Shown: positions 656 through 35,100 of the stretch, piece after piece | Position numbering within the stretch: the first letter of the stretch is position 1 | How the letters are laid out: each line of letters begins with the position of its first letter | Assembly (NCBI GenBank): GCA_963771465.1 | Contig: CAVYTU010000015.1 | Span: 96,001-160,000 of the forward strand | From: an uncultured delta proteobacterium | GTDB taxonomy: Bacteria > Desulfobacterota > Binatia > UBA9968 | DNA: 64,000 nucleotides | Reading direction: 5' to 3' | Translations under genes and position numbers: made by a program | The notes under the pieces: generated by a model | Seen by the model: only the letters and a program-made list of their open reading frames with translations | What the model was told of the DNA's origin: nothing | Database searches by the model: none

Positions 656-2812
656 TTACTTTGTGGCCTTTGTGATGAATTCAGAATCCGCCTTCTCAGC
701 ATTGGCGCGTTCCAGCAGCACTTGTTCCAAGGCGGCGAGCAGATGCGACGGCGAGAGTGAAATGTCTTTGCGATAATTGCCGTCGCGCAGGCCGACCAGT
801 TTGGCTTTCTCGCAGATCGCCGAGAGATCGGCGCCGGAGAAACCTTCGCTGCGCTCGGCCGCGGTTGCGATCGCCTGGTCGAGCTTTTCTTTTTCAGGAA
901 TGCTCGACAGTAGTACCGTGAGTATTTCTTTGCGGCCTGCTAAATCGGGCAGGCCGACGTAGATTTCTAATCCAAGCCGGCCCGGCCTGAGCAGCGCGGG
1001 ATCGAGCAAATCGCGCCGGTTGGTGGCGGCCAGAACAATCACCTGGCTCGCGGCGCGTAGCCCGTCCATCTCGGCGAGCAGTTGGTTGACCACTCGTTCG
1101 GTGGTGGCGTTGGCCGCTTCGCCGCGCCGTTTGGGCGCGATGGCATCGATCTGATCGAACAGAATTACGGTCGGCTGCACCTGGCGCGCCATCTGAAAGA
1201 CATCGCGGATGGTCTGCTCCGATTCGCCGAGCCACATGCTGAAAATCTCCGGGCCGTTGACCGGAATAAAATTGGCGCCGCATTCATGCGCCAGTGCCTT
1301 GGCAACCATCGTCTTACCCGTTCCCGGCGGACCGTAGAGCAAGATCCCCGGTGAGCGGCGCAGGCCCAGCCGAGCGAAGGCGTCGGGATAGATCAACGGC
1401 GTTTCCACCGCCTCGCGCAGCTGGTTGATGACCTTGTTCATGCCGCCGATATCTTTCCAACCGACATCCGGCGTCACCCATAAAGTCTCGCGCAATGCGG
1501 AAGGCGAAGTTTTCTCCAGCGCGGCAACGAAGTCGTCTTTTTTGACGACGATCTGTTCCAAACTGCCGGCGCCGCGTAGCGAAGAGAATCCCGGGCCGGC
1601 GGCGGCGCGCAGCGCGGTGAGTCCGGCTTGGCGCACTAACTCCATCAGATCGGCGCCGACGTAGCCGTGGGTGCGGTGCGCTACCTCCGGCAAAAACGCG
1701 ATCGCCTCTTCATCCATCGGCACGCGCCGGGTGTGGATGTTGAGGATTTCCAAGCGCCCTTCGGCGTTAGGCGGCGCAATGAATATCTCGCGGTCGAAAC
1801 GGCCTGGCCGACGCAGCGCCGGATCGACCGAATCGACTCGATTGGTCGTGCCGATGACGACGACGTCTTCCATGCTGACCAAGCCATCGAGCAGAGAAAG
1901 CAATTGTGTCCCCATGCGCACGTCGGCTTGCGAGCCGCTCTCGCCGCGGCGCGGCGCGATGGCGTCCAACTCATCCATCATGACGATCGACGGACTATGT
2001 TCCATCGCCTCTTCGAAGACCCGGCGCAAATTGGCCTCGGTGCCGCCATGCACGGAGCTCACCAGCTCGGGGCCGTTGACGTAAAGAAAGTGCGCGCCGA
2101 TCTCGTTGGCGATCGCTTTCGCCAAATAAGTTTTGCCGACTCCCGGCGGTCCGTAGAAAAGAATGCCGCGCGGCGCTTCGATGCCGAGGTGTTCGTAGAC
2201 TTGCGGAAACTGGATCGGACACTCGACCAACTCGCGGATCGTCTCGATCTCGGCGGACAGCCCGCCGACATCGTCGAAGGTCACCATGTTCGCCGCGACG
2301 CCGGCGCGCAGCGCGCTGGTGCGCAGCACCACCCGGGTATTTTCGCCGACAAACGAGCGGTCGGGCTCGGCGGAGATGACGCGGAAAATAATATTGCGCG
2401 GAAACTCGAATAGCTTTACCGACAGCACCATGCCGCTGCACGTCAATTGTTTCTCTTCGACAAAGCGAGTTTGTAGCTCGCGCTCCAGCGTCGTCAGGTT
2501 GCCGGTGAGCGGCGCCATCGGTTCCAACACCAGTCGTTTGGCTTCGTCGATCTTTACCGAGTTGAAAGTGATTTTTTCGCGCAGATCGGGTTTTAGAAAC
2601 TGAATCTGAAAGCGGTCCAAACGGACGCAGCCGCGCCCTTCATCCTGCGGCCGCGCCGCAACCCGCGCCAACAGCCGGCGCGCCCGCTGCGTGGTCAATT
2701 CCACCACACTGCCATCCGCGATGCCGTCTTGTTTGAGAATCAACGGATCGACAAAGGCGATATTGCGCCCGCTCTCCGCGCTCGGTAGCCGTTCCACCGG
2801 CAGTTGTGTCAT
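656..2812 (-). CDS. Cdc48/p97/VAT-family double-ring AAA+ ATPase
   Basis: N-domain (about 175 aa) plus two AAA modules: GPPGVGKT/MMDELD/TTNR..DPALRRPGRFD and GPPGTGKT/LFDQID/ATNR..DPALLRPGRLG. Confidence 0.92.
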   Translation of the reverse strand: MTQLPVERLPSAESGRNIAFVDPLILKQDGIADGSVVELTTQRARRLLARVAARPQDEGRGCVRLDRFQIQFLKPDLREKITFNSVKIDEAKRLVLEPMAPLTGNLTTLERELQTRFVEEKQLTCSGMVLSVKLFEFPRNIIFRVISAEPDRSFVGENTRVVLRTSALRAGVAANMVTFDDVGGLSAEIETIRELVECPIQFPQVYEHLGIEAPRGILFYGPPGVGKTYLAKAIANEIGAHFLYVNGPELVSSVHGGTEANLRRVFEEAMEHSPSIVMMDELDAIAPRRGESGSQADVRMGTQLLSLLDGLVSMEDVVVIGTTNRVDSVDPALRRPGRFDREIFIAPPNAEGRLEILNIHTRRVPMDEEAIAFLPEVAHRTHGYVGADLMELVRQAGLTALRAAAGPGFSSLRGAGSLEQIVVKKDDFVAALEKTSPSALRETLWVTPDVGWKDIGGMNKVINQLREAVETPLIYPDAFARLGLRRSPGILLYGPPGTGKTMVAKALAHECGANFIPVNGPEIFSMWLGESEQTIRDVFQMARQVQPTVILFDQIDAIAPKRRGEAANATTERVVNQLLAEMDGLRAASQVIVLAATNRRDLLDPALLRPGRLGLEIYVGLPDLAGRKEILTVLLSSIPEKEKLDQAIATAAERSEGFSGADLSAICEKAKLVGLRDGNYRKDISLSPSHLLAALEQVLLERANAEKADSEFITKATK

Positions 2813-2965
2813 TCGTAACGTCCTCCGATCAGTAGCCGGAATTTATCAGCGAGAAGGTGCCGCGTTTTTTCCTCGGCACACTGGAACATTCGGGCTTGAA
2901 TCGCGCTCATGGCTCGCGCTCGTAGGCAAACGATTACGAGTCACGAGCAGAACACGAACACGATT

Positions 2966-4087
2966 TCACGACTTGTTCCAACTCGAAGCGTCGCTGATAT
3001 GTTCGATGCCGCCGAGAAACTCATGGGACAGCTGGCGCGACCAGCTCGAGATCAGTCGCGCCGGGCTGCTGCCGTCGTTGAAATGCTGATGCGCCGTCAT
3101 CGGCGGGATGCAGATCACATCGCCGGCTTCCCACGGATATTTGGTCTGCTCGTGGACATCGTAGCCTTTGCCCGCTTGCACGTAGATCATTTCCTCGAAG
3201 ATATGGCGGTGTTTGCCGGTGTGGCCGTTGGCCTCGATCTCCATCGTCATCAGGTCCATGGCCCGCGCCGCCACCTCGGTCCACAGGCTGATGTAAAATT
3301 TGAGCTTGCCCTGCCGGGTGTTTTCCAGCGCCGTGTCGGCGCCCTTGATCACCCGCGGCCCTTTTACTTCGGTGTTGTTCTCTTCGACCAGTCGATCGAG
3401 AAACCAATCGTACTTGGTTTTTCCCGTGGCGCCTTGCTTCACCGCTCGGCGCGCCGAGAATACCGCTTCGCGCTTGCCGTCGGCGCCTTTGCGCACTTCC
3501 ATGTCTTCTTCCAAGCCGAGCAAACCGCGCGGGACTTTGAATCCAACCAGCTGTCCCGCGTTATCTTTGATCGGCAGCGTTCCTTCGGGAATCGATTTGA
3601 AATCGAACTGCTCCTGCCACAAAAGACCGAGCACGTGCCAGAGCCGCACCTGCGGCAGCCAGGCGCGAAAGCCGGTTTTGTCGTCGGCAATGAACTCCTG
3701 TGTAGTGTACGGCGGGATGACCACAACGTCGTTGGCTGAGAAAGCGTAGCTCTGGCCGTCTTGCACCGAGGTGCCGCTGCCTTCGAGAATATACGCGGTC
3801 ATCGACGGAATCAGCCGGACTTTTTCGCTCCGCTCGCCGGCTTTGAGATCGATAAAGCTGGCGGTCAAAGCACTCAGCGGCGCGACAGTGAAGCGCTCGA
3901 AGACACGCAGGTCGCCCAGGATATGGCCGCCCTTGGCGAACATCGGCGGCTTGACCACCCGCGGCAACAACTCCATGCGCTCGCGCTCGAGCTTCTGTTT
4001 AATGAACCGACCCTCGTAATCGTAATAGAGCTTTGGGTCGACTTCCGTCTCGCGCAAATTTTCTCGGACTCGTTCTTTCTCCGCCAT
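2966..4087 (-). CDS. Bicupin protein (gentisate 1,2-dioxygenase-like architecture); N-terminal cupin lacks His ligands
   Basis: C-domain GKHRHIFEE...WEAGDVICIPPMTAHQHFN; N-domain has KVRLIP and TTQEF where paralogs have HRHI and HQH. Confidence 0.8.
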   Translation of the reverse strand: MAEKERVRENLRETEVDPKLYYDYEGRFIKQKLERERMELLPRVVKPPMFAKGGHILGDLRVFERFTVAPLSALTASFIDLKAGERSEKVRLIPSMTAYILEGSGTSVQDGQSYAFSANDVVVIPPYTTQEFIADDKTGFRAWLPQVRLWHVLGLLWQEQFDFKSIPEGTLPIKDNAGQLVGFKVPRGLLGLEEDMEVRKGADGKREAVFSARRAVKQGATGKTKYDWFLDRLVEENNTEVKGPRVIKGADTALENTRQGKLKFYISLWTEVAARAMDLMTMEIEANGHTGKHRHIFEEMIYVQAGKGYDVHEQTKYPWEAGDVICIPPMTAHQHFNDGSSPARLISSWSRQLSHEFLGGIEHISDASSWNKS

Positions 4088-18866: not shown

Positions 18867-19165
18867 AGCATCGACCTCCTAATGACTTCCGCGATAATTT
18901 TGCCAATGTGAACCGATTGAAGAGATTGCGTTTACTAGCTTTGCCGGAGTAATTCAACGATTTCCCCCGCGCCAAAGATTAGCCAACTGCTGTGCCGAGC
19001 GATCTCTCGCTTAGCCACTAAATATCAGAAATATACTATGGAGACTATACTCCCCAACCAACGGCCCCGGCACTATGATGCTCTTGCTCCAAGGCGTCGG
19101 TTCGCGGTAATACGCTTCCAGAAGATCTAATTTTCGATCGAATGCAATTGCTAAACGCCGCGCCA

Positions 19166-20191
19166 ATGACTGCACTACGAAAAACAATCCTTTTACTCGG
19201 TTTAGCCGGGTCGCTGCCACTAATCTTCGGCTTGCGGGTCGCCCGCGCTCAGCAGGAGAAGCTCGAACGCATGGTTATCTCCTATGCCGGAATCACCGGC
19301 GGACGGGGGCCGGTTTGGATCGCCAAGGAGCTGAAACTTTTCGAAAAGCACGGCCTTGATGCGCGCCTGGTGCAAATCACCGCCGGCGCTACTTCGATCA
19401 ACGCTTTGATCGCCGGCGACGTCGACATGGCGATGACGACGTCGTCGGCTGCCGTCGCGGCGGTTCTGCGCGACGCGCCGTTGTCGATCATAGCCACCGG
19501 CGGCGCGCCACCCTACAAACTGGTCGCCCACTCGGCTATAAATTCTGCGGCACAGCTCAAGGGCAAGGTCGTCGGCAGCAGTCAACTCGCCTCCGGCGCC
19601 GACTTCGCCATCCGCAAGCTCTTGCCCAAGTTGGGATTGACTCCGGGAAAAGATGTAACCGTTTTACCGACCGGCTTAAGCGAGTCGCATAAACGCATCC
19701 TGCTGATTTTCCAGGGACGCATCGATGCTACCTTGGCGACCGTTGAAAATGTCTTCCAAGTCGAGCTCGGCGGCCAAAAACTAAACGTCATCGCCGATTT
19801 AAAAGAAATGGGTGTCCACGTCAGCGGCACGGACATGTTGACGACCCAGCAGTTTTTGAAAACCCATCCGCAAAAAGTCAAATCGTTTTTACGGGCCTAT
19901 ATCGAAGGGGTGTGGACCGGCATACAGAATCGAGAAGTTTCTGACCGCATTTACCGAAAATATTTAAAAATCGATAACCCAAAACTGTTGGAAGCGATGC
20001 ACAAAAGTTATTTTGTCGCCGGCAACGTGCCGCTCAAACCCTATCCGCAGCTCGATTCGGTACAATCGGACGTAGAATATTTAACCACGGCGAATCCCGG
20101 GCTTAAGACCAAGAAAGCAACCGAGATCGTCGACACGACGCTACTGCGCGAAATCGAGAACGAAGGCTTTTACACGCAGCTGCGGCGCTGA
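19166..20191 (+). CDS. NitT/TauT-family ABC substrate-binding protein
   Basis: Signal peptide; WIAKELKLFEKHGLD, ALIAGDVD, LKGKVVG. Confidence 0.8.
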   Translation: MTALRKTILLLGLAGSLPLIFGLRVARAQQEKLERMVISYAGITGGRGPVWIAKELKLFEKHGLDARLVQITAGATSINALIAGDVDMAMTTSSAAVAAVLRDAPLSIIATGGAPPYKLVAHSAINSAAQLKGKVVGSSQLASGADFAIRKLLPKLGLTPGKDVTVLPTGLSESHKRILLIFQGRIDATLATVENVFQVELGGQKLNVIADLKEMGVHVSGTDMLTTQQFLKTHPQKVKSFLRAYIEGVWTGIQNREVSDRIYRKYLKIDNPKLLEAMHKSYFVAGNVPLKPYPQLDSVQSDVEYLTTANPGLKTKKATEIVDTTLLREIENEGFYTQLRR

Positions 20192-20254
20192 CCCAGAGAA
20201 TGAACGCATCGCCTTAGCGAATTTTTAGCGCAACAAAATAACAAGAGAACTCAA

Positions 20255-21427
20255 ATGGGCTATCAAGGTTTTACCGTCATCGACGCCGACTCGCATTTCC
20301 GCGAGTATCTCGACGTCGATCGCACCTATCGCGACAATATCGATCCTGAGTATCGTGAAGCGTTCGAGCGGCTTTCCCGCGCCGTCGCCAAGCGACGTGA
20401 GGTAGGGCAATCCACCGATCTGTTCATGGGACCCATGGCGATCATCGAACCGTCGGACGAGTGGCGTCCACTCGGCGTCTACGATACCTTCGGCGCCGAG
20501 CGACCAACTCAGGCGCGCATGACGCGCCAGACGCCGATTCCGCGCGAGGTCAACTGGCAGCCGGAGCTGAGACTCAAGGATATGGACCGCGCCGGGATCG
20601 ATATGAGCGTGATCTTTCCGAGCCACGCCGCCAGTTATTGTATTTTGCGCGAGGTTGGTTTCGAGAGCGCGCTGCACCGGGCGCATCACCGTTACATGAG
20701 CCAATACTGTGGCGGCGCCAACGGCCGGCTGCGCTGGGTCGCCATCGCGACCATGCGCGATATAGCCGCGAGCGTAGGAGAAATCACCCATTGGGCCGAG
20801 AAAGATGCCAATCTCGCCGGCGTGCTGGTGCCGCCGCTCTGTCCCGATGGCAAGCTGCTCGACACTCCTGATCTCCATCCGTTGTTTCAGCGCGCTCAGG
20901 AACTCGACCTGCCGATTCTGGTTCACGGCGGCGTCTTGCGCTCACCCCACGGCCCTGGCGCCAGCGAGCTCAATAACGCCGGCTTTATCATTCGCGCCGT
21001 CTATCAGCCTTGGGGCGGCATGACCGCAATCAGCGCGCTGATTGGCGGCGGCGTTTTCGAACTGTTCACCAAGCTCCGCGTCGCGGTTTTCGAAACCAGC
21101 GCGGGCTGGCTGCCGTGGTTAATTGAACGGCTCGACGAAAGCTATGAGTCAAAGCCGAATCTTGTGCCCCATTTGAAGCGCAAACCATCCGAGGTGCTCG
21201 CCGAAGGACGGCTGTTCCACTCCATCGACCCCGGCGAGCGTTACATCGCGCATTGTGTCCAAGAGTTGGGCGAAGACATCTGGCTGTTCGCGACGGATTA
21301 CCCGCACACCGGCGTGGCATTTCCCGACGGCGCCCAAGCCGCAGTCGACCGGCCGGGACTCTCCGAAAGCGCCAAGAGAAAAATCCTCGGCGCCAACGCG
21401 CAACGCTTATTTGCCCGGCTCGCCTGA
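20255..21427 (+). CDS. Amidohydrolase_2 family metalloenzyme
   Basis: IDADSH, DMDRAGID, PILVH, FATDYPH, KILGANAQRLF. Confidence 0.88.
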   Translation: MGYQGFTVIDADSHFREYLDVDRTYRDNIDPEYREAFERLSRAVAKRREVGQSTDLFMGPMAIIEPSDEWRPLGVYDTFGAERPTQARMTRQTPIPREVNWQPELRLKDMDRAGIDMSVIFPSHAASYCILREVGFESALHRAHHRYMSQYCGGANGRLRWVAIATMRDIAASVGEITHWAEKDANLAGVLVPPLCPDGKLLDTPDLHPLFQRAQELDLPILVHGGVLRSPHGPGASELNNAGFIIRAVYQPWGGMTAISALIGGGVFELFTKLRVAVFETSAGWLPWLIERLDESYESKPNLVPHLKRKPSEVLAEGRLFHSIDPGERYIAHCVQELGEDIWLFATDYPHTGVAFPDGAQAAVDRPGLSESAKRKILGANAQRLFARLA

Positions 21428-21613
21428 GCAGTCGCGCAAGACAGCACCCCGGTGAAATCGCTGATAAGAAGGATTGCACCCACGACAATTTAACCGAAGT
21501 CGGAGACTTCACGGTGACCCCCGCTTGCCGATTGACGCGAGTTTTTCTAAGATCACCCCATTAACTCGTAGAAATTCTTTGAATGAAGACTCCGAGAAAG
21601 CGAGGACACTGCA

Positions 21614-22888
21614 ATGTTAACTAGAGAAGAGAACCAACTGGTAACTCGCGTCGGTCGCGGCACACCGATGGGCGAAGTCATGCGACGTTATTGGATGCCG
21701 GCGTTGCTCGCCGAACAATTACCGTCGCCCGATTGCCCGCCGGTTCGGGTGAAACTCTTGGGCGAAGAACTGGTCGCCTTTCGCGACAGCCAAGGCCGCG
21801 TCGGCCTATTGGAAGAATTTTGTCCGCACCGGCGCGCATCGCTCTTCCTGGGCCGTAACGAAGAGAGCGGCTTGCGCTGCGTCTATCACGGCTGGAAGTT
21901 CGACGTTCAAGGCCGTTGCGTCGACATGCCCAACGAGCCGGCGGCGAGCAACTTCAAAGACAAGGTTAGCATACAATCCTATCCCACGATCGAAATGGGC
22001 GGGGTGATCTGGACCTACATGGGTCCGCCGGAAAAAATCCCCGAACCGGTCGGTATGGAGTGGCTGCGTGCTCCAGAGAACCATCGCTTCGTGTCTCAGA
22101 CCCATGAATTTTGCAATTACGTCCAATGCGTCGAAGGCGGCATCGATACCTGCCACGGCTCGTTTCTCCACAACAACGATCTCTCCGATCTCGCCGCGTT
22201 TAGCCGCATCGATCGGGCGCCGCGGCTGGAAGTGGAACGGACCGATTATGGCTTTCGATATGTCGGTATTCGCGATGTAGGCGAGATCGGCACCTATTTG
22301 CGGCTCTATCAATTCGTCCTGCCGTTTCATCAGTTCCGCTCCCAACAAATCGTTCGCCGTAAAGGCCAAGGCAGCGGCAACCGCGCCGATATCCCGATCA
22401 TGAAAGGCCACATGTGGGTGCCCATGGATGACCACAGCACCATGGTTTACAACTGGATGTTTGCTGTCGACGAGGACAAACCGATGACTCAGGAGTTCAT
22501 CGAGCAGCAGGAAAACAGCGGCGGCCGCGGTCCCGCAGGCGAAACTACCGTGCGCCACCGCACCCGCGAAAATGACTGGCTGATCGACCGCGAAGTGCAA
22601 CGCACGAAGACTTACACCGGCATCAAGGGCGTCAACACGCAGGACTTGGCCGTGCAGGAAAGCATGGGCGCCATCGTCGATCGCAGCCTCGAGCATCTCG
22701 GCACATCGGATAAAGCGATTATTACCTACCGGCGCATTCTGCTCGACGTTCTCCGCGATTTTGAGAACGGCATCGAGCCGCTCGGTGTCAACCCGCGCAC
22801 TTATCGCAATGTACGATCGGCCGATATCGTCATTCCAAAAGACGCGCGCTGGCAAGACATCGCCGACCAAAGTGTCGCGCACTGGTAG
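21614..22888 (+). CDS. Rieske non-heme iron oxygenase (phthalate 4,5-dioxygenase OphA2-like family)
   Basis: Rieske CPHR...CVYH; mononuclear Fe motif EGGIDTCHGSFLH; QDLAVQESMG..VDRSLEHLG.SD. Confidence 0.88.
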   Translation: MLTREENQLVTRVGRGTPMGEVMRRYWMPALLAEQLPSPDCPPVRVKLLGEELVAFRDSQGRVGLLEEFCPHRRASLFLGRNEESGLRCVYHGWKFDVQGRCVDMPNEPAASNFKDKVSIQSYPTIEMGGVIWTYMGPPEKIPEPVGMEWLRAPENHRFVSQTHEFCNYVQCVEGGIDTCHGSFLHNNDLSDLAAFSRIDRAPRLEVERTDYGFRYVGIRDVGEIGTYLRLYQFVLPFHQFRSQQIVRRKGQGSGNRADIPIMKGHMWVPMDDHSTMVYNWMFAVDEDKPMTQEFIEQQENSGGRGPAGETTVRHRTRENDWLIDREVQRTKTYTGIKGVNTQDLAVQESMGAIVDRSLEHLGTSDKAIITYRRILLDVLRDFENGIEPLGVNPRTYRNVRSADIVIPKDARWQDIADQSVAHW

Positions 22889-22896
22889 ATACGGTA

Positions 22897-24043
22897 ATGC
22901 CCAGTGTAATTGCACAGATGAGGCATCGGCGCGTCGTTACATTCTCGGTGCTCTTGGCTTTGGCATCATTTTTTTACTGCGCGCCGACCCTTCACGCGGA
23001 CTGGAAAAGCGACTGGGAGAAAGTAACCGCAGCAGCGAAAAAAGAAGGCCAGCTCAATCTCTACGTCGGCCGGTACGGCCAGGCGGCGCTGCTGGACGAG
23101 TTCAAAAAAGAATTCCCCGAGATCAAGATTGTTTCGGTCAATGGCACCGGCGATCAATTGGCGACGCGCATCGCCGCCGAAGTGCGCGGCGGCAAAACCA
23201 TCGCCGACATTTACAGCGGCGGGCCCAATTCAATTCAGAACGCGCTTTACCGCGGCAAGATGCTCGACTCGATCAAGTCCGCTTTTATTCTGCCGGAAAT
23301 CCTCGATGAGTCGAAATGGTATGGCGGCAAACATGTTTTCATTGACCGCGAAGGCCAGTTCATATTTCTTTACGTCGCGCTGCCGGGCTCGCGCGGTTTA
23401 TCTTTCAACGCAAGCTTGGTAAACCCGAAAGGAATTCAAATCGTATTGGGATCTGACGCTACCGAAGTGGAAAGGAAAAATCACTTCCCAGCGGGTCACT
23501 GAAACCGGCCTGAGCGCGCACTTGCAGTTCTACTACTATCATCCCGACCTCGGCCCCGAGTTCATCAAGCGCGCCTTCGGCGCCATGGACATCACGTTTG
23601 GTGATCGGCGCACGATCACCGATTGGCTGGCGGTCGGCAAATACGCCATCTGCCATGGCTGCCGCCAAGTCGACAAAGCCCAGAGTCAAGGTCTGGCGGT
23701 CGATGACTTCGACACTGGCGATTGGAAAGAAGGACAGCAGCTCAGCACGGGCGGCGGCTCCATCGGGCTGATCAAAGGCGGGCCCAATCCTAACGCGGCG
23801 CGGGTTTTTATCAATTGGTTCCTGTCGCGCAAAGGGCAGACGGCGATGCAAAAATCCAACGATCTTTACGGCGAGAATCCGCCGAACTCTCGCCGCATCG
23901 ATATTCCCAAAGACATGCTGCCTAGTGAAAACCGTCTGATCGACGGTAGAAAATATCTAGACGTATCGAACCCGGAGTTTAGCGACATGGCGCCGGTACT
24001 AAAACTAGCGCGCGAGATCATGCGCGCGCGCGATCAGAAGTGA
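22897..24043 (+). pseudogene. ABC solute-binding protein split by a +1 frameshift near 23430
   Basis: Removing one base from CCGAAAGGAATTC restores VNPKEFKSYWDLTLPKWKGKI and joins ORFs 22897-23502 and 23522-24043; paralog of 8894-9994. Confidence 0.8.
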
Positions 24044-24050
24044 GGAGACT

Positions 24051-25175
24051 ATGAAGATAATTGGTATCAGCAAAATTTTCTTGTTGGCTGCGAGTTGGTT
24101 CTTAGTCTGTGGCAACAGCTTTGCCGCCGCACCCAACGCAGCGTTAGTCAAAGCCAAACAAGACGCCGAAGCCAAAGGATTCCTATTCGAATCGAGCCAC
24201 GACGACATCGTCGCCAAGGCCAAGAAGGAAGGCAAGCTACGCGTCATCAGCACCATGGAAACCGCCGTCATCAAGGCAATGCGCGATAGCTTCAAGAAAA
24301 AGTATCCGTTCATCGACGTGCAGACTCAGGAGCTCGGCTCGGTCGACGAGAATCAACGCTTTCTCCTGGAGCTCAAAGCCGGCATCGTCAAAAACTGGGA
24401 CGTGAACCGGGCGTACACTGACTTCTACGATCAGTATTTTCCTTATCAGAAAAAATTTGACATCCTTGGCATGGCGGAACAGAAAGTGCTGAACATTCCG
24501 CCTAAACTCGTCGATCCACAGCAACGCAATTTGATCGCTATCGGCAGCAACATCACCGTGGTCGCTTACAACAAGAAGATGATCAGCGCCGAGAAAGTGC
24601 CCGATCGTTGGGAGGACTTTCTCAAACCCGAGTTCAAAGGCAAGAAATTCGTGCTCGATATCCGGCCGTTGCCGCTCGGTATGTTAGTGCCCGCTTGGGG
24701 TCAAGAGAAAACCGTCGACTTCGCCAAAAAATTAAACGCGCAGCAGCCGGTGTGGGGCCGTGGACACACCCGTGTCATGGCGTCATTGCAAGCCGGCGAA
24801 TATCCGCTCTTCCTCGGCCCGAACTTCGGAGCGGTCAAAAGATCACAAATGAAGGACCCGACCGGAGCGATCGGCTATAAGATTCCAGAACCCATCCCAG
24901 TGCGATTGCATGAAGCCAATGGCGTCTTGGCCAACGCCGAATATCCTTACGCGGCGTTGCTGTGGCTGGAATACCAAGCGTCGCCCGAGGGCCAGAAAAT
25001 CATGGACGAGCACTGGCCGTTCGGCGCATCGCTCTTCGCGCCCGGATCGGCCCAAGAAGAAGTCACCCGCGGTAAAAAACTTTCGCTCATCGATTGGGGC
25101 CACTACACCAAGCTCGATGACTATATAAACAAAGCCGTCGAAGCGATGGGCTTCCCGACGGCGACCGTGAAGTGA
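24051..25175 (+). CDS. ABC extracellular solute-binding protein
   Basis: AKAKKEGKL, AYNKKMI..P.RWEDFLKPEFKGK, YAALLWLEYQASPEGQ. Confidence 0.82.
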   Translation: MKIIGISKIFLLAASWFLVCGNSFAAAPNAALVKAKQDAEAKGFLFESSHDDIVAKAKKEGKLRVISTMETAVIKAMRDSFKKKYPFIDVQTQELGSVDENQRFLLELKAGIVKNWDVNRAYTDFYDQYFPYQKKFDILGMAEQKVLNIPPKLVDPQQRNLIAIGSNITVVAYNKKMISAEKVPDRWEDFLKPEFKGKKFVLDIRPLPLGMLVPAWGQEKTVDFAKKLNAQQPVWGRGHTRVMASLQAGEYPLFLGPNFGAVKRSQMKDPTGAIGYKIPEPIPVRLHEANGVLANAEYPYAALLWLEYQASPEGQKIMDEHWPFGASLFAPGSAQEEVTRGKKLSLIDWGHYTKLDDYINKAVEAMGFPTATVK

Positions 25176-31994: not shown

Positions 31995-32059
31995 ATCAAT
32001 CTCCCGTCGAAAGGTTGCGTTAACCGCCAATTTTTATGTCACACTAATTCCGTACATGT

Positions 32060-32971
32060 CTAGCAAAACGCCGGCGCCATGGCTTCGATCTGTTTTCTCG
32101 CCTCGGGTTTGATCCCTTCCACGGTGGCAAGAAAGTTCGGATGCGTCATCCCCGTGCCCAGATACGTCCAGCGCATCCCCTTCAATACCGCGTCAGCCAT
32201 CTCCTGACGCTCACGCTTGGTCAGTTTTCTGCCGGTTGCGGTGATAAATGCCTCGACGTCGAACTCCGTCTGCTGTTTGATCCCATCGTCGATGAAGGCA
32301 CCGATCTCCGCGTATTCCTGAAACGCCAGTTCGATCTCTTGCTCCGCAGCATTGGCCGCTAACTCTTCGACGATCAGAGTATCGAGCTTGGCATGCTGCG
32401 ACTCTTCGAGCCAGTGATGCTTCAACAGGCTCTTGAACTGCGGATCGAGTTCCTGATTATCGCGCACCGCCTCGATGTAATGGCGCAGCGTGATCCATTC
32501 GATGTGAAGAATCGCAATGGCAACGCCCAACGGGCTGTGCGACAGTACGAATTTTTTCACGTCTTCTGCGGGTCCAATGAAGTCACAGCGGACGCCGAAG
32601 CCTTGTTCGAAATCGCGGCGAAATTCCTTGAACAGATGAATGTGTTTTGCTTCCTCACCGGCCAACGTCAGCAGTGCGCGAATCTTGTAATCGTCGCCCA
32701 ACAGCTGCGCTCTTGCGTGGTCGAGTGCGTAGGGCAGAATAAATTCCTCCACCAAACCGAACATGGCGAGATATTCGTGGCCACGAATCTGGTTCAAAAT
32801 GCGTTTCTCTTCGGCGGATAGAAATCCGAGGCCATTCACGTGCGCCAAAGCTTCAGGCATAAACAGCTTGGTAAAATCCAAGCGCTTGTCGGCACCGATG
32901 ATGTCCTCGATGCGCCAGTTGATACGTTCCGAAGTCTCCAGCACTCCTTGATAACTATAATTGTGACCCAT
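32060..32971 (-). CDS. Ferritin-like diiron protein (AurF-like), function unknown
   Basis: Diiron ligand pattern LVEEF...EEAKH...HIEW...EESQH; GGAG RBS. Confidence 0.7.
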   Translation of the reverse strand: MGHNYSYQGVLETSERINWRIEDIIGADKRLDFTKLFMPEALAHVNGLGFLSAEEKRILNQIRGHEYLAMFGLVEEFILPYALDHARAQLLGDDYKIRALLTLAGEEAKHIHLFKEFRRDFEQGFGVRCDFIGPAEDVKKFVLSHSPLGVAIAILHIEWITLRHYIEAVRDNQELDPQFKSLLKHHWLEESQHAKLDTLIVEELAANAAEQEIELAFQEYAEIGAFIDDGIKQQTEFDVEAFITATGRKLTKRERQEMADAVLKGMRWTYLGTGMTHPNFLATVEGIKPEARKQIEAMAPAFC

Positions 32972-33023
32972 AATCTAATCTCCTTTTTGATTTTTGGCTT
33001 AGCGCTGCTTGCAAAGGAGTTAG

Positions 33024-33039
33024 AGCGGGAAACGTGCCA
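33024..33039 (-). promoter_or_regulatory. Putative sigma54 (-24/-12) promoter
   Basis: Minus strand TGGCACGTTTCCCGCT (GG-N10-GC) about 55 bp upstream of the diiron gene, next to a sigma54 activator. Confidence 0.6.
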
Positions 33040-33106
33040 ACGCGGAGAAAGTCTGAGAAGTGTGAAGAAACCAAGAGTTAGAAGACTTAAAGCCACGCAA
33101 CGAAGT

Positions 33107-33160
33107 CACGAAATTACGTCAGCGATGAAATCTCGTGAGCCAAAGAAATGATTTTTCGTG
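33107..33160. promoter_or_regulatory. Three pseudo-palindromic candidate activator (UAS) sites
   Basis: CACGAAATTACGTC, GATGAAATCTCGTG, AATGATTTTTCGTG about 70-120 bp upstream of the -24 box. Confidence 0.5.
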
Positions 33161-33168
33161 AGCGGAAC

Positions 33169-35100
33169 TTACGACTGACGCTGGCGCTCGATGCCGAGTG
33201 CCTTCATGCGCGAGCTGAGGGTGCTGGGTTTCATGTCAAGCAGCTTGGCGGCGCCGTTATCTCCGGCGACCTTCCATTGGCTGGTTTCAAGGGCGGATAT
33301 TATATTGTTCCTTTCCATCGCTTCGAGTTCCTTGGCTGTGCGCACACGCTGAGTGTTATCGCTTCTGTCGGCGAGCACGGTGGCGATCGATCGCAAGCTT
33401 TCCGGCAGGGCGCGATCGAGGTTCAGCCGACCGTCGCGCGAGGTAATCACCGCGCGCTCGATGATGTTTTGCAGCTCGCGCACGTTGCCCGGCCAGCGAT
33501 AGGCTTCCAGCCGGCGGATGCAATCGAGAGAGAGCGCTTCCATCGATCGGCCCATGTTCTTGGCGAATTTTTGTGCAAATGCAGCAGCTAGAATACCGAT
33601 ATCGCCGTGGCGCTCGCGCAGAGGCGGCAACCGGATCGGAAACACATTCAGCCGATAGTATAAATCTTCGCGAAACTTGCCCTCGTTAACGGCCCGCTCA
33701 AGGTCACGGTTGGTGGCCGACAAAACACGCACATCGACCGTGCGAGTCTGCGAGCTGCCGACGGGTTCGAACTCGCCTTCTTGCAGCACCCGCAAGAGTT
33801 TGGTCTGCAAGTCGAGCGGCAGTTCGCCGATCTCGTCCAAGAAAATGGTGCCGCCGTTGGCCAAGGCGAATCGTCCGTCGCGCTTTTTGGTCGCGCCGGT
33901 GAACGCGCCGGCTTCGTGACCGAAGAACTCACTCTCGATAAGCGTCGCCGGAATCGCCGCGCAGTTAACTTTGATGAGAGGTCTTTGCCGCCTTTGGCTC
34001 GCATGGTGAATCGCCCGTGCGATGAGTTCTTTGCCGGTTCCGGTCTCGCCGAGAATCAGCACCGTCGCATCGGTGCCGGCCACCTCCTGAACGTCCCTAA
34101 GCACACTGTGCAAAGCTTCGCTCTGGCCAACAATTTCATCCGCGCCAAACAAAGATTTGATCTCTTCGCGCAGATACTCCGCTTCCACGGTCAACGAGTG
34201 AATTTTCTGTTCGGCCTCGAGCCGATCGTTAACGTTTCTAAAAATAACGGTGTAGAAAGGTTCGCGCTCAATGTCGAACCGAGACAGCGTTGCCTCCGCT
34301 CGAAACGGCAAATCGCTCTCGGTAGTCGCGTCCAATCCGCCGGAAATCCATAGGGAGCGTTGACCGTCAGAGCGAGAATCGAGATCGATAATCAAGCGCG
34401 CCAGCTTCTCGCGCGAGTCGGCGGACAGAAATTGGGTAAACGTTCGCCCGATGATCGCTGCCGTGCCGCGGCCCATCACCTTTTCCGCTGCGGGATTCAT
34501 CTGCGTGATCGTCAAATGCTGATCGAGCTCGATGATCGCGTCCATGGCGCTGCCGACCAAGCGGCCAAGCTTCTGTTCGCGCTCACGCACCTGCGCTTCG
34601 GCGCGCAGACGGCGCAGTTCAGCTCCCGCTCGGGCGGCGAAGATTTGAAATAGAGCTTGGGCGCGCGGCTCGGCAGGCATCGGCCGCAGGTCGAGCACCG
34701 CCAAGTGGCCGAGAACTTTTCCATCGAGATCGAGCAACGGCATGCCCATGTAGCTCGCCGCACCGATGGCCCGCACGTCCGGATTGTTGCCGTAAATATC
34801 GAGGAGATTGTCGGGGATATGGACAAGGCGACGCTCGTCGACCACCCGCTCACAGGCGGTTCCATCGACCACCATCTCCCAACCATCGAGCCATTGATCG
34901 CCCATCCGAAAGGCCAGTGCTTTTAATCGGCGTGATTCGGGAAAATACTCGGTGACCCACGCGCCATGCGTGTTTAATGCAAGGGCAAGATTTTTTACCA
35001 GGGCTTGAAAAAATTCCGTACCAGTCTGAGTCGCAGTGCCCTCAAGAATTGTTCTGAGTGCGGTATCGACATCGAAATCTTGCAGCGGTGAACGATCCAT
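33169..35100 (-). CDS. Sigma54-dependent activator, GAF-PAS-AAA-HTH (FhlA-like)
   Basis: [52 protein letters not shown]-terminal HTH. Confidence 0.93.

Follow-up and report, generated by a model that had tools for sequence, protein, structure and literature searches.

A Cdc48/VAT-like ATPase with a natural glutamine in its D2 Walker B motif, encoded beside cupin genes

The 64,000-nucleotide (nt) window analysed here, which is the whole stretch from position 96,001 to 160,000 of contig CAVYTU010000015.1 of an uncultured delta proteobacterium (Binatia; assembly GCA_963771465.1), carries on its minus strand a gene for a Cdc48/VAT-like type II AAA ATPase (P0001) that directly follows a tandem array of four genes for two-domain cupins (bicupins). 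In this ATPase the second ring, D2, has a glutamine at the position of the catalytic Walker B glutamate. Here we describe the locus, the clade of proteins that share this replacement and the cupin genes that accompany them, and we weigh what such an ATPase might do.

The ATPase gene and its D2 Walker B site

The ATPase gene is preceded by a ribosome-binding site and encodes an N-terminal domain followed by two AAA modules, D1 and D2 (Table 1). The architecture is N-D1-D2 of the Cdc48/VAT kind because four lines of evidence agree. Pfam finds two AAA domains (289 bits) and two AAA_lid_3 domains; the NCBIfam model TIGR01243 (CDC48 family) aligns with residues 12-677, at 665.9 bits and thus below its cut-off of 802.65; Foldseek aligns the AF2 model with p97 chains of full length (722 columns, TM score 0.72, E 3e-67); and the closest solved structure by sequence is VAT (PDB 5g4g, E 9e-177, residues 34-612), followed by p97/Cdc48 at about E 1e-151. 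By sequence alone the N domain stays below the Pfam threshold (CDC48_N, 29.7 bits against a cut-off of 35.1). The AF2 model, built from an alignment of 18 clade members, has a mean predicted local distance difference test score (pLDDT) of 83.2, with N, D1 and D2 all confident and residues 1-165 arranged in beta-rich subdomains. The protein ends in ...EFITKATK.

The original prediction, made from the letters of the window, was that D2 reads VILFDQID with a CAG codon at 1151-1153. This is confirmed by the translation of the open reading frame (ORF), where the coding strand gives T-V-I-L-F-D-Q-I-D-A-I with Q554 encoded by CAG (CTG on the plus strand), and by a HMMER alignment to VAT (5g4g) that places D-Q-I-D of the ATPase opposite D-E-I-D of VAT D2. 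The remaining sequence readings of the prediction hold as well: D2 keeps an intact Walker A motif (GPPGTGKT) and its arginines R609 and R612, D1 is canonical with D280-E281 in MMDELD, the pore loops SSVHGG (D1) and SMWLGE (D2) are both in place, and the C-terminus, TKATK, lacks the hydrophobic-tyrosine-any residue (HbYX) motif. The codon itself, which was to be verified in reads, is also CAG in contigs from two soil DNA runs of two separate studies, X1 (record 4, 876-2078) and X2 (record 26, 1107-1768), neither of which differs from the window at 1151-1153. X1 may come from the sample from which the window was assembled. X2 differs from the window at 5 other letters and therefore represents a separate, slightly different strain. 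Contigs from RNA runs lie on the ATPase gene, none of them spanning the junction between bicupin and ATPase; they prove neither transcription of the gene nor its co-transcription with the bicupin.

Table 1. Features of the ATPase gene and of the adjoining bicupin genes (positions in the window; aa, amino acids)
Feature	Positions	Strand	Remarks
Cdc48/VAT-like type II AAA ATPase gene, 718 aa	656..2812	minus	ORF and translation
D2 AAA module, residues 450-700	713..1465	minus	Pfam, VAT alignment, AF2 model
D2 second region of homology, R609-P-G-R612-L-G614	971..988 (R609/R612 977-988)	minus	Gly for the Asp of the usual GRFD
D2 Walker B, D553-Q554 (GAT CAG)	1151..1156	minus	Gln in place of catalytic Glu
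D2 pore loop 1, SMWLGE	1223..1240	minus	aromatic-hydrophobic-Gly triplet intact
D2 Walker A, GPPGTGKT	1310..1333	minus	
D1 AAA module, residues 176-445	1478..2287	minus	all catalytic motifs present
D1 Walker B, MMDELD, D280-E281	1970-1975	minus	
D1 pore loop 1, SSVHGG	2042..2059	minus	no aromatic residue
D1 Walker A, GPPGVGKT	2129-2152	minus	
N domain, residues 1-165	2318..2812	minus	sub-threshold Pfam CDC48_N; AF2 model
Ribosome-binding site, GGAGGA	2821..2826	minus	8 nt ahead of the ATG at 2812; sequence reading
Bicupin 1, 373 aa, starts MAEKERVRE...	2966..4087	minus	directly upstream of the ATPase, 153-nt spacer
Bicupin, 381 aa	4093-5238	minus	tandem paralogue
Bicupin, 374 aa	5369-6493	minus	tandem paralogue
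Bicupin, 377 aa	6592-7725	minus	tandem paralogue

A Glu-less D2 clade and its distribution

A word-indexed search returned the best 120 homologues, ranging from 92% down to 40% identity, of which 117 cover the Walker B site. Glutamine occupies the site in 114 of these nearest homologues, which refutes a private mutation. The three proteins with glutamate are 1000-1162 aa long and end with an HbYX-like tyrosine, and one of them is archaeal according to its source. HMMER was also run exhaustively against 1.84 billion cluster representatives: among the best 150 matches, the 108 representatives of 600-900 aa divide into 89 with Asp-Glu (DE) at the D2 Walker B site, 12 with Asp-Gln (DQ), one with EQ and six others, namely DP, DN and DH inside the clade and DT, EG and ED outside it.

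In a FastTree phylogeny of 137 rows, the nearest Glu-less rows form one clade of 45 with a support of 98 (42 Q, 1 H, 1 N, 1 P and no E), and glutamate is found in 88 of the 91 rows on the other side. The clade was also recovered when the tree was rebuilt in IQ-TREE from 57 rows with the Walker B and GRFD columns removed. In a careful search, all 25 of the 25 non-Glu rows lay to the same side of one branch, with an ultrafast bootstrap (UFBoot) of 96 and a Shimodaira-Hasegawa-like approximate likelihood ratio test (SH-aLRT) of 83, and quick searches gave SH-aLRT values of 77 for the same rows and 63 for an earlier 58-row set. In these trees the Glu-less D2 proteins make up one deep bacterial clade, and the analyses show that the catalytic D2 glutamate was lost long ago within it. 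At the nucleotide level, 90 loci from independent assemblies encode the glutamine by CAG (74) or CAA (16), with both codons found even among near-identical relatives, and the use of both codons indicates that the glutamine is under purifying selection.

Further residues mark the clade, which for this survey comprised 123 rows chosen for having Trp at 527 and any residue but Glu at 554, which makes both of these positions circular; the Glu-type comparison set comprised 89 rows, DE in 89/89 by definition. The six D1 motif residues K227, D280, E281, N324, R335 and R338 are each present in 123/123 clade rows. D2 likewise retains K500 and R612 (both 123/123), R609 (118/123) and the sensor-1 asparagine N598 (110/123). 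Residue 614 is glycine in 120/123 clade rows, turning GRFD into GRLG, whereas it is aspartate in 79/89 Glu-type rows, and no new conserved acidic residue has appeared beside the motif (DQxD against DExD). The W-L-G pore loop of D2 (W527) is invariant also in alignment A1, the rows of which were not chosen by Trp. The D1 pore loop, in contrast, follows the pattern S-V-[H/Q/Y]-G-G, with V at 254 in 99/123 rows and H, Q or Y at 255 in 62, 35 and 20 rows, compared with K-[YF]-Y-G-E and thus Tyr or Phe at both positions in Glu-type relatives. A penultimate Tyr or Phe, as in HbYX-like termini, occurs in 0/123 clade rows and in 22/89 Glu-type rows. Between distant pairs, the identity of the large subdomain is 0.64 for D1 and 0.525 for D2 in the clade, as against 0.54 and 0.51 in the Glu-type set, so that D1 is the better conserved ring in the clade whereas the two rings hardly differ in Glu-type relatives.

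The DQ-type ATPase gene is accessory and patchily distributed. Of 24 other genomes in its own genus, two proved in a first search to hold the full-length gene (96% and 91% identity), and one divergent, incomplete copy (59%) was also found; a later search added a fourth copy in genome G174, cut by the end of the contig. In one family of the same order, five genomes were sampled. Three of them carry a copy of about 50% identity, and a Glu-type copy is present in the remaining two as well as in one of these three. Another family of the order has no copy in 11 genomes. Of 151 genomes sampled from the phylum, 16 match at E <= 1e-100, and apart from the window's own genome all have Glu or, once, another residue in D2. 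In the order of the alphaproteobacterial carrier G193, the DQ type is found in G193 alone among 201 genomes, the three other matches being DE. The source names of clade members include Candidatus Binatia, Candidatus Acidoferrales, Actinomycetota, Micromonosporaceae, metagenome-assembled genomes of Deltaproteobacteria, Stellaceae and Beijerinckiaceae.

Two genomes contain a pair of relatives. Genome G179 has a DQ-type gene (719 aa, L117, G179:C5) and a Glu-type gene (755 aa, L118, G179:C6); the two types therefore coexist, which argues against a simple replacement of one by the other. In the other case (L009 9483-9932, G191:C35), a second copy with 47% identity accompanies a copy with 80% identity in the same genome. 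It reads F-E-Q-I-D, the Walker B aspartate having changed to glutamate and the glutamate to glutamine, and a bicupin gene adjoins it without any spacer (7988/7989).

Searches of plasmids yielded records at only about 40-48% identity, and none of the 49 records retrieved with P0083 reached 80% query coverage. No DQ-type plasmid copy was seen, one plasmid record having been typed. That record, L203 (NC_010510.1, Methylobacterium radiotolerans pMRAD01, 32014-34281), is a named example of the ordinary bacterial type: its CDC48 family AAA ATPase is DE in D1 as well as in D2, and no cupin gene lies next to it.

Cupin genes beside the ATPase

The four bicupins of the window are about 35-38% identical to each other and, in a comparison within contig C15 only, they are the best matches to cupin hidden Markov models (HMMs) on that contig. 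Their nearest known relative is gentisate 1,2-dioxygenase, at a distance: the best PDB match, 3bu7, reaches E 1e-10 to 3e-12 and covers a single cupin domain, and the gentisate 1,2-dioxygenase model TIGR02272 gives 32 to 47 bits (20-47 bits when the wider family of neighbouring cupins is included) against a cut-off of 442.1, which leaves them outside that family. Searches of the ESM Atlas with a bicupin returned only unnamed or generic cupin clusters. The model of bicupin 1 consists of two beta-barrels with a mean pLDDT of 63. Its first ~70 residues are conserved in sequence and have a pLDDT below 50, but the alignment had 8 rows and the low value is therefore no proof of disorder.

The pairing of ATPase and cupin genes extends well beyond the window. 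For a survey of gene context, DQ loci came from species genomes and from metagenomes, the latter scanned once with a pattern specific to the clade, and neighbouring ORFs were called by a longest-ORF rule. The ATPase ORF was found in 72 loci, for which up to four genes per side were clustered; joining ATPases at >=75% identity gave 16 locus groups. The top neighbour family, with 82 ORFs, occurs in 40/72 loci and 12/16 locus groups, while the next family reaches 6 groups. By position, it accounts for 23/44 genes at -1, 15/36 at -2, 14/63 at +1 and 1/35 at +4. This family consists of cupins. In 32 of the 67 loci with any called neighbour a cupin adjoins the ATPase, on the same strand in 25 of them and often with gaps of -8 to +45 nt.

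In the Binatia-like group the cupins are fused bicupins of about 372-381 aa, and elsewhere they are pairs of small cupins. Type A small cupins (~170-180 aa) have an N-terminal E-R-x-R-x-R-E motif, found as a strict pattern in 7/12 groups, and an H-x-H metal motif, whereas type B (~161-185 aa) lacks H-x-H. Among the bicupins of at least 330 aa, 32/34 contain H-x-H-x(3,4)-E, and Pfam Cupin_2 matches are found. HMMs built for the small cupins match in 47/72 DQ loci (0.67 Mb) and in 0/97 Glu-type Cdc48 loci (1.14 Mb), the latter mostly archaeal. Within the genus of the window, high-identity orthologues of bicupin 1 exist in exactly three other genomes (G159, G167 and G174), each time with the ATPase directly downstream; in G174 the contig ends after ATPase residue 74. 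Taken together, the link between DQ ATPase genes and cupin genes is strong.

Three loci from one family of the same order (L115-L117; genomes G177, G175 and G179) place the DQ ATPase gene between an ORF of 516-519 aa resembling EutA, its immediate upstream neighbour, and a class II aldolase gene, which follows directly downstream, with several small cupins and UbiD, Rieske and Amidohydro_2 genes around them. EutA belongs to the family of ethanolamine ammonia-lyase reactivating factors.

Between bicupin 1 and the ATPase, the 153-nt spacer (2813-2965, minus strand) has a predicted fold of -59.7 kcal/mol (z = -4.07). It has no match in Rfam, and the spacers of 7 close relatives could not be aligned and gave 0 consensus pairs. 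We dropped a conserved RNA structure as a candidate here, as the relatives share none.

Proposed mechanism and alternative explanations

We give a probability of roughly 55% to the reading that the ATPase is a D1-driven remodeller with an ATP-locked D2, a division of labour like that of NSF, and the neighbouring cupins as its clients or partners. Judged from general knowledge of AAA+ proteins, D2, which retains the residues for ATP binding and for its sensing from one subunit to the next, would bind ATP and, lacking the Walker B glutamate, would turn it over slowly or never. The ATP-loaded D2 ring could then hold the hexamer together and clamp a polypeptide through its Trp loop, and the canonical D1 ring would hydrolyse ATP and do the work. 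Gene context suggests that the likely clients or partners are the adjacent cupins and bicupins related to gentisate dioxygenase, for which the ATPase may be an accessory remodeller that assists the assembly, cofactor loading or reactivation of these metal enzymes, much as Rubisco activases assist theirs. The conserved first ~70 residues of bicupin 1 could serve as a handle for the ATPase. A complex prediction for the N domain (residues 1-175) with bicupin 1 gave 0.14 and 0.16 against a mark of 0.32, which speaks neither way.

More speculatively, the whole Glu-less clade may represent a hitherto unrecognised class of enzyme-dedicated AAA+ activases, hexamers powered by D1, clamping substrate with a permanently ATP-loaded D2, recognising the conserved and probably flexible N-terminal tail (E-R-x-R-x-R-E...) of split or fused cupins and remodelling their metal centre for loading, exchange or repair. 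We regard this extended proposal as tentative and would expect it to fail rather than to hold.

The original prediction had offered an alternative between an NSF-like enzyme, driven by D1 with a structural D2, and a holdase. The NSF-like option fits the sequence better because the D1 motifs are intact and D2 keeps K500 and R612 and never has Glu, but the idea that D2 is merely structural did not stand, given the invariant Trp pore loop. A holdase role may still apply to the ATPase.

Known systems help to place this arrangement. Exchanging Glu for Gln in the D2 Walker B motif is the standard trap in p97 and, more generally, the standard laboratory freeze of an AAA+ ring in an ATP- and substrate-bound state. 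The engineered traps of p97, VAT and Cpa carry the identical change at the same position, but they are laboratory-made whereas the change in this clade is natural and ancient. VAT and archaeal Cdc48 (PDB 5g4g, 5g4f, 5vc7) share with the clade the N-D1-D2 layout and a canonical D1. They differ in that D1 and D2 both have DE and the D1 pore loops are aromatic, and many archaeal forms have HbYX, whereas the window ATPase has DQ in D2, GRLG for GRFD, SSVHGG in D1 and no HbYX. NSF, the D1 pore loop of which contains an aromatic residue, is not the nearest relative in sequence, the closest solved relatives of the window ATPase being VAT and then p97; the trees were built without NSF sequences.

In NSF, D1 hydrolyses and D2 serves nucleotide-dependent hexamerisation (PMC5070193), and a similar pairing of a hydrolysing D1 with a nucleotide-binding D2 would be compatible with the sequence of the clade ATPase. 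The window ATPase differs from NSF in that its D2 keeps an invariant aromatic pore loop and both arginines and its D1 loop lacks an aromatic residue. Cpa (Rv0435c, Msm0858) is, like the window protein, a bacterial Cdc48-like N-D1-D2 ATPase without HbYX, and it interacts with the 20S particle without that motif (PMC6017811). Its D1 motifs are described as mildly degenerate, with the sensor Asn and arginine finger in D2 only (PMC6017811), and its D2 as strictly canonical (PMC6017811, PMC5515868). Cpa is thus a mirror image, as D2 is canonical (E566 in Rhodococcus) and D1 degenerate in Cpa, and the reverse is seen here. The rhodococcal D312N/E566Q double Walker B variant is reported to bind nucleotide but not to hydrolyse it (PMC6017811), and the 'sporadically occurring' non-actinobacterial homologues of Cpa are reported to cluster with archaea (PMC6017811). 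Pex1/Pex6 is also a type II AAA ATPase, and one of its rings is by nature deficient in hydrolysis; there it is the D1 ring that lacks a Walker B motif, Pex6 D2 being the main ATPase and carrying substrate loops (PMC4490564), whereas in the window ATPase it is D2 that has lost the Glu. Finally, the Rubisco activases CbbX, Rca and CbbQO are AAA+ machines dedicated to one metabolic enzyme and encoded beside it (PMC5437159). They belong to other AAA+ families with a single ring and serve as a working analogy only. Our literature searches revealed no AAA+ protein with a cupin as its client.

Several observations weigh against a D1-driven remodeller of cupins. In the window subclade the hydrolysing ring, D1, has a pore loop without an aromatic residue while the Glu-less D2 has one. 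The invariance of the D2 Trp loop and the loss of the D1 aromatic together mean that a pure NSF analogy, or a picture in which D1 threads and D2 holds, is incomplete. D1 hydrolysis may be coupled to movement of the D2 loop, D2 may turn over slowly, or the protein may clamp rather than thread. Gln554 itself may allow slow hydrolysis. With regard to the cupins, clustering placed no cupin within four genes in 4/16 locus groups, two of which are contigs of 1.5-2.5 kb, and related split cupin pairs occur in G162, G151, G161 and G172, where no DQ ATPase was found, so the cupins have no strict requirement for the ATPase. Being mostly archaeal, the 97 control loci do not form a matched background; part of them came from a scan of genome contigs with alignment A1 that returned mostly Glu-type, again mostly archaeal, loci (75/80) because its patterns are generic AAA motifs. 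The context survey left out an actinobacterial subclade with the motif LLDQLDAMA. As to the phylogeny, the bootstrap of the careful IQ-TREE search was unsettled (correlation 0.965), and the metagenome loci were chosen by an FDQ pattern, so that they inform on context and synonymous turnover, not on the frequency of Gln, and therefore provide no evidence for its conservation.

An alternative to cupins as clients is that the protein is a general quality-control unfoldase or holdase with a trap-like D2, and that the cupins are merely co-resident in variable catabolic islands. Such loci do also hold MmgE/PrpD, Amidohydro_2, UbiD, Rieske/LigXa, TctC, ATP-binding cassette (ABC) and major facilitator superfamily (MFS) genes; cupins are numerous, the small-cupin HMMs matching 48 ORFs in the 6.9 Mb of the window's own genome, and cupin pairs exist without the ATPase. 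However, mere co-residence does not sit well with a cupin share that is highest directly next to the ATPase (23/44 at -1) and drops with distance (1/35 at +4), with same-strand gaps of often few bases, or with a linkage in 12/16 groups where no other family exceeds 6, and we consider this explanation unlikely. It is less probable still that D2 remains a working motor through Gln554 or another residue, as in an ordinary two-motor VAT or Cdc48. In its favour, D2 keeps Walker A, the sensor-1 Asn (110/123), both arginines and the aromatic loop, which is more than a structural ring seems to need. Against this stand the Cpa variant cited above, in which Walker B changes including the D2 Glu-to-Gln exchange give a hydrolysis-dead form (PMC6017811), the lack of a replacement acidic residue next to the motif, and the few clade members with P, N or H at the site, which fit a loss of the catalytic role.

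A role in activating the proteasome, as for archaeal Cdc48/VAT and actinobacterial Cpa, would be suggested by VAT being the closest solved relative and by the reported binding of Cpa to 20S without HbYX (PMC6017811). We find this very improbable, since the window's own genome (99.4% complete) has a single PF00227 match, a 193-aa ORF of HslV size, the penultimate Tyr or Phe is found in 0/123 clade rows, and the ring pattern of Cpa is the opposite. The PF00227 match is read as HslV-like and not as a 20S alpha/beta pair because the family also matches the E. coli and B. subtilis control genomes. We give practically no credence to the idea that the gene is decaying or that its glutamine is a private mutation or a sequencing error: the glutamine is conserved across the clade and agreed upon by contigs from two DNA runs, and the gene has an intact frame, N, D1 and D2 domains that fold confidently in the model, and contigs from RNA runs on it. 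A reading as a defence system found no support, as PADLOC gave only a generic AAA likeness to the ATPase (IetA, TRIP13) and nothing for the bicupin.

To our knowledge, Cpa is the one characterised family of bacterial Cdc48-like proteins. Our full-text searches found no description of a Cdc48 clade with a Glu-less D2 or of its gene context. What is new here is therefore the cupin gene pairing and, in the literature searched, a Cdc48/VAT-like family with a naturally Glu-less D2. If D1 alone hydrolyses, nature would have fixed the trap state in one ring of the Cdc48/VAT scaffold and kept it throughout a deep bacterial clade in which the substrate-binding pore loop of that ring is invariant too. 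Such an arrangement would be the mirror image of Cpa and Pex1/Pex6 and closer to NSF. It would offer a natural system in which to study how a hydrolysing ring cooperates with a non-hydrolysing ring that engages substrate. The cupin pairing supplies a concrete and testable candidate client for bacterial Cdc48-like proteins. Few enzymes have an AAA+ helper of their own, and metal-dependent, cupin oxygenase-like proteins would join them. Should the tentative activase proposal be true, the clade would provide the first case of a metabolic enzyme served by a Cdc48-type motor, as well as a natural experiment on the use of a trap-state ring.

The surroundings of the locus in the window are rich in catabolic and transport genes. 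Downstream of the ATPase, a gene for an ABC substrate-binding protein comes next, with two MmgE/PrpD genes further on; further upstream lie an Amidohydro_2 gene and a gene for a LigXa-like Rieske oxygenase, and many transporter genes are found around them. A second catabolic block occupies 19142-25175 on the plus strand and encodes an NMT1-like binding protein, an Amidohydro_2 protein, a LigXa-like Rieske oxygenase (21614-22888) and a solute-binding protein, together with two ORFs of 201 and 173 aa without a Pfam match.

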